Below are positions 1 to 3,000 of a DNA stretch of 9,840 nt, piece after piece (the stretch's first letter is position 1; each line of letters opens with the position of its first letter). The position numbers are program-made. Source of the stretch: a virus (Duplodnaviria > Heunggongvirae > Uroviricota > Caudoviricetes); the IMG/VR virus record IMGVR_UViG_2728369593_000015. One strand, written 5' to 3'.

Positions 1-3000
1 GATAGAAGGAAATAACATTAGTGATGTACGCATGGCGCCTCCCGCTAAGTTCTGCAATGATCAAACAGAACTCGCTACGTGCCCTTAAAACTCGATCATT
101 TAGCCCCTCCAAGGAGGATTCACCATGCGGTTGATTTTTTAATAAACAGTAAACAAAAAAGTCAAGGATTATTCATTCTGTTCTTTCATCATCGGCCACA
201 GCAATACCACAATGCCGCAGACCAGAGCGCCATCAGTCAGTACCAACATTATCCTGCTGGTGAAATCCATCATCACCATCACTAAAAGCAGGATCACAAC
301 AGCAAGCAGACACAGTTTATAAAACAATGTTCAGAAAACGCATTCAGCATGCCTAAGGTTCTATTCCTACGAATAGCCAACTTGCAACTTAAAATATTAT
401 TTATGCAGCCAATTAAATTCTGGTCCTTACAATATCAACCTGAAGATTCTTATCTTGTGCTGATTGATAAATGACAAACCTTTTACTACCTGCATTGAAA
501 GAAGTAGACAAAACCAGACAATTATCATAACGAGCAAGAACATAATACCAACCATCATTATAATTAATCATTTCATATTCTTTCTTAAACTGTGGTTTGT
601 AATATCCTGTCAGAAATGAAAAAAGCCAGAAATATGCCACAAAAGCAATCATCACAATCTCAAAAAAATGTTTTTTTATAAATGGCTTATCATAGAAGCA
701 TGATACCGATAAAAATCGCCCATAAGATCTTATCGAAATTGTAACCGCCAGCGCAATCGCTGCTGACAGTAGCAAAAGAGGTACCTGAATCTTCTGTCTC
801 AATATAGAAAACTCAATAATTGCCGGCACAAACAATAATTCCACAGCAAAATAAAGGCGAAATACATTTAGCTCTTGCATAGAATGTTTTCTTTTCACTG
901 CGAAAAAGAATACAACACCAATACCCCAACCGATAAGAAATATAGCAATGACGATAACTGCAAAAAATAAACTTCTGGCAACATCATCAACACCTGCACC
1001 TACAATCCACCATGGGAAGCCGTAGTAAAAAGAAGTACCCCATCCATAGAAATAAGCACTCCCCCATCCAAGGCATCCCATGTAGGCAATAAAAAGTGAA
1101 GAACTCCTGAGCAGCGCACCATCCTTCATAACCACCCCAATACAAGATGATAACATTGGCTTACAACTCATAACAAAAGCAATTCAATGCCGTCAAGAGG
1201 TTACAGGCTAAAAAAACTCTATTACATAGCAGCCAGCATGTTTACCGTACAAGTACAACTCAGGGCATAAAAAAAACCCACTCGGCAGCGGGTTTATACA
1301 TTTTTTACAACATACCAAATTTGCATGAAGTATATGGCTTTTAATCCAGTTTTGCAATATTTTGCTGTAAAAATGCTGCCTTTTGTTTTGAACGTGTTCT
1401 CGTCACAAGCAATAAAGCATCACTATCAAGCTGTAGAAAAATGTGCTTCATTGCAACCCAGCGTTCAGTAAATGTCTCGGACCAGTTTTTTGTTGTCACT
1501 CCCACCAATGATGCCAGTGTCTGGTATTCATAGGCCTCACGCCCTGCAAGTTCGCTCTTCACATCCTGTGCAGCCAGCCAGATTAACGTCTTCAGGCGAT
1601 CCAGTGTCTTACCTGCAATTTTTCTGTTACTTAACAAATCTTTAAACTCGCTCCATGCCCATTGCGTTATGGTGACCTGATGCCCCCATCGAACGCTTTC
1701 GCTGTAACACCAAAGCAACCATGCTTTCTGATGTTCATCGAGAGACAAAACCGCGCGGCGCCATGAAGAGGTTGAGAATTCAACCGGGCTGACCAAAGCA
1801 ATGGATGAACCTTTTGCGTACGACTGCTTACCGGAAGTCGGCGTATTATCCAGCGTAATCATCTTGCCAGTTACCACATCCAGAATGCGCGGCTTCTTTC
1901 GTTTGTATGTACCAGTATCAAATTGTGCATGCTCCTGCCAGGCTTCGAGCTGGCCTTTCGTTGCTCCGTTCAAGTCAGCAGTAGCTGCCATAAGTTGCTC
2001 ACGAACATACTGTAAATATTGGGTATTCATGCAGTAAATCCTTTCTATATTTTGGCATAATTCTTCAACATTCGGTAATCGTTCAAAACCGAATCGGGGA
2101 AACGACATAAGCACAGGAGCCCCCAGCGACAGCGAAGGAGTTCTGATATATAAGACTCAGACATCATTCATTCCCCGGTTCTCCAATATCTGTTTCACTC
2201 ATCATCCATAACTACCTGTAATTGCCCCCCTTTTTTTGTAACAGTTCTTATATTGCTATATAGAATAGCCATTACTAATGCTTTTAAATTTAATAAAATA
2301 AAAATTATAAAAAACATAAAACACCACGCAAACACACTTAATAAAAACACCGTTACATTAAAAGATAATAAAAACCGCAATAAAAAACGAATAAATCAAT
2401 TGTCTCACGCAATTATAAAACATCATATTGATTACGCACCTTGTATTACAAACTCATGTATGTAAAATACGCGCACCATTCAAAAAAAAGGAAGACAATA
2501 ACATATGAAAAAAAGTGTCATCGCTGGCGTCTTTATTGCTCTGTCATTTACCACGTGTTCAGCTATCGCGAACAGCCTTGCATTATCATTAGCAAATGAT
2601 GATGCAGGGAAGTTTCAACCAATACTTAATGATATTTATGGCAATAAACATGAAAACAGAGATGATTACTCACAAGGCTTATTTCTGGGATATAGCCACG
2701 ATATCTCAGACTCGAGCCAATTATCTCTCCATATTGCGCAAGATATTTACTCTCCATCAGGCAGTAATAAAAGACACAACACAGCTGTAACTGGAGACAG
2801 AGCTTTTAGTGCATACACTCACACTGGTATTGAATGGAACTCCCTTGCGAATGACTGGATTCGCTATCGATTAGGTACTGACATAGGTGTTGTTGGCCCC
2901 GACGCAGGCGGTCAGAAAGTACAAAATAAAGCTCATGAGATTATTGGGGCAGAAAAATATCATGCATGGGATGATCAAATAGAGAATCGCTACGGTTATA

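Follow-up and report, generated by a model that had tools for sequence, protein, structure and literature searches.

The slot behind the late antiterminator gene Q is a classical site of cargo genes in lambdoid phages, among them the stxAB genes of Stx phages and the LT-II genes. Here we describe the gene that lies in this slot, downstream of Q, the late promoter pR' and the terminator tR', in a stretch of 9,840 nucleotides from a Caudoviricetes virus (IMG/VR record IMGVR_UViG_2728369593_000015; "the window" means this whole stretch). Its product would share with the stxAB-type cargo the same dual expression logic on induction, but the latter is a secreted toxin while the product of this open reading frame (ORF) would be a membrane protein kept in the bacterium. 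With a probability that we put at about 0.4, we favour the reading that the product is an inner-membrane protein of the TfpB family, that its gene travels as a self-contained 'moron' cassette, and that the protein acts in lysogenic conversion of the envelope.

The closest described copy is gene CPT_434_68 of phage 434, which is the same gene in the same neighbourhood (a Q82-like gene, TciB/DUF3927, and LpxR upstream of Q); the two differ in that the window copy lies in a decayed prophage, and in the start codon, which is annotated to give 247 amino acids (aa) in 434 whereas we prefer one that gives 238 aa. Moraxella TfpB, the founder of Pfam family PF27470, has a similar length and shares the GWxxAYxYGWG...GYPWW motif and the YY(I/V)L beta strand, but its gene is found between type IV pilin genes or cassettes, whereas the window gene sits in a lambdoid late-operon leader without pilin genes nearby. 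The putative Salmonella counterpart, STM1630, differs from the window ORF in being chromosomal and outside any prophage, with a reported co-regulation with Salmonella pathogenicity island 2 (SPI-2) and a promoter that is inactivated in ST313. When compared by their described architecture only, the TfpY/FimB-like proteins (PMC11841053) also begin with a bundle of helices in the inner membrane and continue into a periplasmic domain that contains beta structure, and they share with the Moraxella member the position at a pilin locus; however, they are always encoded beside a major pilin gene and have three transmembrane (TM) helices.

Results

A member of the TfpB family

The ORF product matches PHROG 1521 with an E-value of 2.1e-154 (residues 31-252 against profile positions 1-222 of 222), a group in the category 'unknown function', and PF27470.1 'TfpB' is the precomputed Pfam match for a protein 100% identical to it as well as for all 104 homologs. 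Direct scans of the ORF gave no match in NCBIfam or in Pfam, the latter in a release without the PF27470 model, and a Pfam scan of all 45 aligned family members at E <= 1 returned noise alone. The Moraxella protein, which carries the JGI name 'protein tfpB', is 29% identical to the window ORF over 220 aa (BLASTP, E 1e-23) and is retrieved at 1e-73 by a profile of distant family members. Forty-five full-length members align end to end and have a common architecture of about 230-260 aa, with an aromatic and Gly-rich N-terminal helix, four hydrophobic helices and a C-terminal beta domain. On these alignments the window ORF and Moraxella TfpB are truly homologous along their whole length.

The original prediction, which was made from the window's sequence without database searches, could not place the protein in a known family. 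This has to be revised, as the gene and its family are already catalogued in PHROG 1521, in PF27470, in the annotation of phage 434 and in RefSeq (WP_001302581.1, 'hypothetical protein') and are not a new entity. A literature search on TfpB-family proteins of prophages, plasmids or Moraxella found no paper; the matches to 'TfpB' turned out to be chemicals, nerve blocks or an unrelated PilB-like TfpB of Acinetobacter, and were discarded. What is new against the literature searched is the link between the prophage ORF, the loci of enterotoxigenic E. coli (ETEC), Shigella and Salmonella, and Moraxella TfpB, together with the mosaic junction at the terminator foot and the predicted topology. The family is small, with 72 clusters at E <= 1e-3 in an exhaustive HMM search of 1.84 billion representative proteins. 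Its named members come only from Enterobacterales, Neisseria, Moraxella and Pasteurellaceae (Aggregatibacter, Haemophilus ducreyi, Glaesserella, Pasteurella, Mannheimia, Avibacterium, Gallibacterium, Actinobacillus and Rodentibacter), all of them animal-associated.

Start codon, composition and selection

The minus-strand frame at 413..1171 is intact, and both these coordinates and the C-terminal sequence given in the original prediction match exactly. Three in-frame ATGs are present, at 1171 (252 aa, the first ATG and the one used in the ORF list), at 1156 (247 aa, used by RefSeq and the phage 434 record) and at 1129 (238 aa). The likely start is ATG 1129, because nearly all full-length homologs of other genera are 236-238 aa long, those of Salmonella, Yersinia, Klebsiella, Citrobacter, Cronobacter and Enterobacter having this length and beginning their alignment at M15, and because GGGGTGG sits 5' of this codon.

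The GC content of the ORF is 36.4%, compared to 45.2% for Q and 45.4% for the whole window, which bears out the low GC that had been noted relative to the backbone. The further claim of horizontal acquisition is favoured by this composition together with the mosaic junctions described below. Aromatic residues make up 21% of the protein (F 10.9, Y 7.1, W 2.9). Comparisons to homologs from five other hosts or replicons gave dN/dS values of 0.055 for the E. albertii copy, 0.086 for the Escherichia sp. copy, and 0.17-0.18 for the ETEC-plasmid copy, the Salmonella copy and a 39%-identical E. coli copy. Given this range of 0.055-0.18 and the identical protein on at least 80 IMG/VR viral contigs, the ORF is a real gene under strong purifying selection and not a chance ORF.

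Predicted structure and topology

An AlphaFold2 (AF2) model built from 45 diverse sequences reached a mean predicted local distance difference test (pLDDT) of 79.7 and a predicted template modelling score (pTM) of 0.72; an earlier model from 28 close sequences was poor (pLDDT 60.7) and was set aside. The better model has helices at 5-36, 47-78, 89-111, 116-136 and 155-181, followed by five beta strands at 187-232. Helices 2-5 are clearly hydrophobic and give four firm TM helices. Helix 1 (LGWGSAYFYGWGxSFYYGFPWW) is only marginally hydrophobic, with a summed apparent insertion free energy (dGapp) of about +4 against a family median of +4.4, and is strongly interfacial; in the model it may be either a weak TM helix or an interfacial element. 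A polytopic protein with a polar C-terminal domain was therefore the right architecture to propose, whereas the claim of at least five TM segments holds in part, as the model does have five long helices but four are clearly hydrophobic and the first is marginal.

Counts of Lys and Arg put loops 2 and 4 in the cytoplasm in 45/45 members. With these loops cytoplasmic, the predicted topology exposes both the GFPWW turn and the beta domain at the C-terminus to the periplasm. Conservation is concentrated in helix 1 and the turn, in the start of helix 2 (ARSL), and in helix 5 and the beta domain (YKPQFKKEY...WYYVLARY), and helices 3 and 4 are variable across the family.

No Asp, Glu, His or Cys is invariant across the alignment of the 45 members, which disfavours catalysis, and the protein is predicted to be non-enzymatic. 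An enzyme was considered and rejected for the same lack of conserved catalytic-type residues. A Foldseek search of the AF2 model against PDB and BFVD gave nothing at E <= 1e-3, and nothing was found in a PDB sequence-profile search with the ORF; across these searches no structural or sequence likeness to a membrane enzyme or transporter of known fold was seen. None of the defence families in PADLOC-DB v2 was matched by the ORF at E <= 0.1.

The region between Q and the ORF

The proposed slot downstream of Q, pR' and tR' was found as described, with a full-length Q gene, a pR'-like site and tR' all present (Table 1). Q matches PF06323 (Phage_antiter_Q) at E 1.7e-91 over profile positions 1-216 of 220. 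We infer the identity of pR' by analogy with lambdoid gene order, and the position of this promoter-like site relative to Q and tR' fits. The tR' hairpin has an RNA fold z of -2.9 and is marked as a terminator in the phage 434 annotation.

A second promoter-like site, with a conserved TTGACG hexamer near it, lies closer to the ORF. The hexamer does not vary between the window copy and those of E. albertii, Escherichia sp. and the ETEC LT plasmid; of these three, the first two also keep the TTGTTA-18-TATCAT block, and the plasmid copy retains part of it. Together this TTGACG/TTGTTA-18-TGtTATCAT block lies about 70 bp before the ATG. The ETEC plasmid copy that has the block has no Q upstream, and its BLASTN homology to the window extends to position 1200. 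Because the upstream block is common to the window and to this Q-less copy, and because a -10 box has been mapped for the Salmonella ortholog, which is assigned by position, the site may be the cassette's own sigma-70-like promoter, a prediction to be read with the fact that consensus scans find promoter-like sites about as frequently in shuffled sequence. A terminator scan found no terminator-like site between the ORF stop (413) and the next gene (327).

A mosaic prophage cassette

A 1.1-kb segment with the ORF, its leader and Q is 99.9% identical in nucleotides to Escherichia phage 434 (OL657226), where the counterpart (UMO75332.1, 'putative membrane protein') is located between the Q82-like gene and 'TciB' (DUF3927). 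Phages 434 and 2B8 are the only carriers (3 records) among 50,697 phage records, and phage 434B does not have this region, which is replaced by a DLP12 segment. The gene is present in 743/5426 complete E. coli genomes. A relative is encoded on 190 viral contigs of IMG/VR; the 80 best of these, from which the counts of cassette context given here are taken, carry a 100% identical protein.

Thirty-two of these 80 contigs have the same 82-type Q and lpxR as the window. In the other 48/80, homology stops at window 1272-1273, which is the foot of tR', and a lambda-type Q with NinI is found upstream; the block of 97-99.8% identity ends at 1273 in contigs that have this lambda-type Q instead of the 82-type. 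The Yersinia homolog (45% identity) comes after a third Q family, of the PF06530 type. These junctions show that the cassette is mosaic, being joined at the tR' foot to at least two E. coli Q types, with a homolog behind a third in Yersinia, and such a survey of the slot agrees with its proposed use for cargo. The features of a moron that we found are a composition unlike that of the flanking phage genes and presence/absence among related phages with sharp junctions. Two outcomes had been named beforehand as contrary to the original prediction, namely confident homology to a housekeeping membrane enzyme family with no phage association, and absence of the gene from all related prophages combined with no expression; neither is what we see.

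The DUF3927 gene is present along with the ORF in 79/80 viral contigs. It was considered as an obligate partner and rejected, as the linkage is confined to the Escherichia prophage cassette and is absent beside homologs elsewhere. As a separate observation, one IMG/VR contig with a lambda-type Q (2700-3000) has its junction inside the terminator, and no tR'-like hairpin is detectable there between the pR'-like region and the ORF, so transcription from pR' might reach the ORF without Q in such a contig.

Homologs outside prophages

The GC content of the gene is under that of its flanks in every host examined. Several homologs are found at virulence loci. On ETEC plasmids the gene is divergent from eltAB and near STb and EAST1; in pUMNK88_Ent, for example, about 870 bp separate eltAB from a homolog with 59% identity, and both EAST1 and STb are no more than 4 kb away; this homolog is listed in 1285 blocks of the protein index. 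Among Shigella plasmids 106 records have a match, one of them being the virulence plasmid pWR100 of M90T, where the homolog lies between virA and spa40. The Klebsiella homolog is near an STb-like gene and a two-partner secretion pair, that of Glaesserella adjoins cdtA/C-domain genes, that of Mesocricetibacter adjoins an HlyB/HlyD type I secretion exporter, and Moraxella tfpB is between type IV pilin genes.

The Salmonella homolog lies between sseJ and steB. It is 46% identical, 238 aa long, of the same architecture and an AT-rich single-gene insert, and by gene order alone, with STM1629 as steB, we equate it with STM1630. This gene is among those listed as co-regulated with SPI-2 (PMC2639726). 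It has its own mapped -10 box, which is disrupted in ST313 D23580 (10.1101/689075), and during infection of macrophages D23580 expresses it at a lower level than 4/74 does.

In Pasteurellaceae and Neisseria the homologs stand alone amid housekeeping genes, in one case inserted between hscB and hscA. This last case is a striking single-gene island in a metagenome-assembled genome of Neisseria sp. (4229-8695), in which the TfpB homolog and a DUF6973 gene are inside the isc Fe-S operon. Each A. actinomycetemcomitans genome has two TfpB paralogs at different housekeeping loci, the neighbours of which we take to be ribA and a dTDP-glucose dehydratase-like gene at one and ilvE-like and mdh-like genes at the other. 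In Moraxella, ORFs of about 300 aa (120-1031 and 3500-4387) alternate with pilin cassettes and have no precomputed Pfam match; the 295-aa ORFs between pilin cassettes were tried as TfpB relatives and rejected at an hhalign probability of 0.1.

Other features of the window

The prophage in the window is defective, its nin and replication regions being cut by insertion sequence (IS) elements. This is indicated by the truncated helicase and IS21 remnants together with the stop in rusA. The rusA gene, which encodes a RusA-family resolvase, has an in-frame stop after codon 45 and looks like a pseudogene, with the neighbours ninH and ybcO (DUF1364) intact. The nin region also has an IS3-family element. 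The helicase-like gene, a partial AAA_25 match, ends abruptly beside an IS21-family element in which istA is split in two frames and istB is reduced to a 71-aa N-terminal piece.

Between ninH and Q, on the strand opposite to the ORF, is a gene for an LpxR-family lipid A deacylase, a second AT-rich envelope-modifying moron that is annotated in phage 434 too; its flanks at 2250-2550 have 27-32% GC. A 130-aa ORF in a patch of about 40% GC has a C-terminal hydrophobic segment and matches PHROG 2638 (unknown function), with no Pfam match. A patch of 34-38% GC between ninF and the IS3 element holds the gene of a 168-aa HNH_3 endonuclease, which is probably a homing-type HNH of the free-standing kind.

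Table 1. Features of the window, with position, strand and source
Feature	Position	Strand	Source or remark
TfpB-family (PF27470 / PHROG 1521) inner-membrane protein CDS, 238 aa (predicted)	413..1129	-	ORF list, PHROG match, homolog lengths, dN/dS, AF2
Promoter-like site TTGTTA-18-(TG)TATCAT	1147..1176	-	consensus scan; would give a short leader to ATG 1129
Conserved TTGACG hexamer, -35-like, 5' of ORF	1191..1196	-	identical in four copies
Intrinsic terminator tR', AAACCCGCU-GCCG-AGUGGGUUU then U8, 9-bp stem	1266..1295	-	terminator scan
pR'-like late promoter TTGCAA-17-TATACT, overlaps Q end	1329..1357	-	consensus scan
Phage-82-type antiterminator Q, 230 aa per phage 434/RefSeq annotation	1341..2030, frame open up to 2114	-	PF06323, PHROG 304
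Mobile post-Q cassette: ORF, DUF3927 gene, start of next small membrane gene	1..1273 (within window)	-	identity block edge
DUF3927 / 'TciB-like' 52-aa membrane protein	169..327	-	PF13064 3.4e-14, PHROG 1470
LpxR-family lipid A deacylase gene	2505-3467	+	
rusA, pseudogene-like	3860-4222	-	
130-aa ORF	4502-4894	-	PHROG 2638
IS3-family element	4958-6170	-	
IS3 orfB	5074-5844		HTH_21 + rve
IS3 orfA	5844-6170		HTH_Tnp_1
HNH_3 endonuclease gene	6260-6766	-	
Helicase-like gene	7602-8243	-	partial AAA_25 match
IS21-family element	8349-9640	+	
istA, two frames	8349-8477, 8416-9372		

Discussion

Our favoured reading of the ORF as a lysogenic-conversion envelope protein of the TfpB family would work as follows. 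In the lysogen the gene would be transcribed from the cassette's own sigma-70-like promoter, and after induction it would be transcribed strongly by Q-modified RNA polymerase coming from pR' and passing through tR', such Q-dependent read-through being the established mode of lambdoid antitermination. The protein would be inserted in the inner membrane with loops 2 and 4 in the cytoplasm, so that the two regions of highest conservation would face the periplasm, namely helix 1, rich in aromatic residues and Gly, together with its GFPWW turn, and the five-strand beta domain at the C-terminus. There they could bind an envelope component or serve as a scaffold on it, without enzymatic activity, and the protein would be neither an enzyme nor a lysis protein. 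The outcome would be a change of the envelope by lysogenic conversion that benefits the host bacterium in animal colonisation. A role in host adaptation is suggested by the repeated occurrence of homologs at virulence loci, by the co-regulation of the Salmonella gene with SPI-2 and by the hosts in which the family is found. Selection keeps the ORF intact although the prophage around it has decayed through the rusA stop and the IS3- and IS21-family insertions.

Several points weigh against this explanation. The promoter activity, the topology and the non-enzymatic nature are predictions only, and no phenotype is on record for a TfpB-family protein. In about half of the contexts seen, the homologs are surrounded by ordinary housekeeping genes, and the linkage to virulence loci is anecdotal and could simply mean that AT-rich DNA of horizontal origin tends to reside together. 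In the strict sense the gene is a moron only in part, as there is no terminator directly 3' of the ORF. Other points come from STM1630, whose equation with the Salmonella homolog is by gene order only. Its deletion gave no intramacrophage replication defect (10.1101/689075), it was 1.7-fold hypermotile in a high-throughput screen (PMC4219756), and a clean deletion that was re-made in another study was not among the mutants characterised there (PMC4534456).

The protein could alternatively be a prophage-encoded phage defence, acting by superinfection exclusion (a block of DNA entry) or by abortive infection (cell killing or depolarisation), which the original prediction had named as candidate roles beside envelope modification. 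The accessory slot, the scatter of the gene through many genomes as small single-gene islands, its integrity in a decayed prophage and a polytopic membrane protein with a periplasmic domain would all suit this, the last since several superinfection exclusion proteins have the same build. There was no PADLOC match even at E 0.1, which is weak as a negative because PADLOC 2023 covers described systems only, but the neighbourhoods examined also had no recognisable defence genes, and among the phage records just the two phages carry the gene. Many homologs are on virulence plasmids or between effector genes, with the Salmonella one co-regulated with SPI-2, which is not expected for a defence gene, and the wide occurrence of the family outside phages, with toxin, effector, pilin or housekeeping neighbours, points away from any phage-specific role. 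We consider defence unlikely, though worth carrying along. The protein could also have a late phage function, for instance as a lysis-timing factor or holin regulator that is relevant in lytic growth alone. The ORF is the first gene after Q-dependent antitermination, and in phage 434 it precedes the lysis cassette, in the interval from Q to the holin gene. However, most of the family is non-phage (plasmids, chromosomal single genes, pilin loci), phage 434B is viable though the whole region is replaced, and size and architecture are unlike those of holins and antiholins. Proteins of the holin or lysis-regulator class are about 60-150 aa long, phage-restricted and encoded next to the endolysin, while here we have 238 aa and a gene at least three genes from the holin in 434. 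A lysis function is rejected on the non-phage distribution, and we give the whole idea very little chance.

Two further explanations were considered. A type IV pilus accessory protein would bind inner-membrane-anchored or minor pilins at the periplasmic face and modulate assembly like TfpY/FimB. The gene of the family's founder is flanked by type IV pilin genes in Moraxella, and Neisseria, Pasteurellaceae and Moraxella, which are piliated and competent taxa, are all among the hosts. The layout of an N-terminal TM bundle and a periplasmic beta domain is like that of the TfpY-like proteins, but in these the TM helices number three and the domain, of mixed alpha/beta type, is larger, whereas here we find four to five TM helices and a beta domain of about 50 aa, and TfpB and Moraxella go unmentioned in the TfpY paper (PMC11841053). 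No pilin gene was present in the window or at any enterobacterial, Pasteurellaceae or Neisseria locus examined, and this makes a pilus role improbable. An orphan immunity protein against a membrane- or periplasm-acting bacteriocin, contact-dependent inhibition toxin or type VI secretion toxin of mucosal competitors would fit the variable presence of single-gene islands in taxa of densely colonised mucosal sites and the two paralogs in A. actinomycetemcomitans, and variable middle helices with a conserved periplasmic face would suit toxin recognition. The co-travelling DUF3927 is annotated in PHROG as 'TciB-like ... resistance to colicin', but that linkage is found in the Escherichia prophage cassette only. 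At the loci examined no cognate toxin gene was found beside any copy, and helix 1 and the beta domain show high conservation even between orders, whereas immunity proteins usually diversify fast. For these reasons immunity, too, seems to us a long shot.

The gene is abundant in medically important strains, being found in prophages of Shiga toxin-producing E. coli (STEC), on the Shigella plasmids (pINV/pWR100), on ETEC plasmids with LT and STb, and in Salmonella as STM1630, and it occupies the most strongly induced slot of lambdoid prophages. One small family ties these prophage, plasmid and Salmonella loci to Moraxella TfpB, which turns an anonymous ORF into a tractable target, and the swapping of the cassette between Q modules at the terminator and the conserved surface predicted to face the periplasm add to this. 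More speculatively, and in our view unlikely on present evidence, the family may be an unrecognised envelope factor of mucosal pathogens, encoded by one horizontally mobile gene and new in its membrane fold, which aids the release or presentation of neighbouring virulence cargo (toxins, effectors, pili) at the periplasmic face, for example by envelope remodelling or vesiculation, or else a new class of one-gene membrane phage exclusion. If either the virulence-cargo helper or the one-gene exclusion were true, it would give a function to a gene of phage 434, of hundreds of STEC prophages, of the ETEC LT plasmids, of Shigella pINV and of the sseJ-steB locus.

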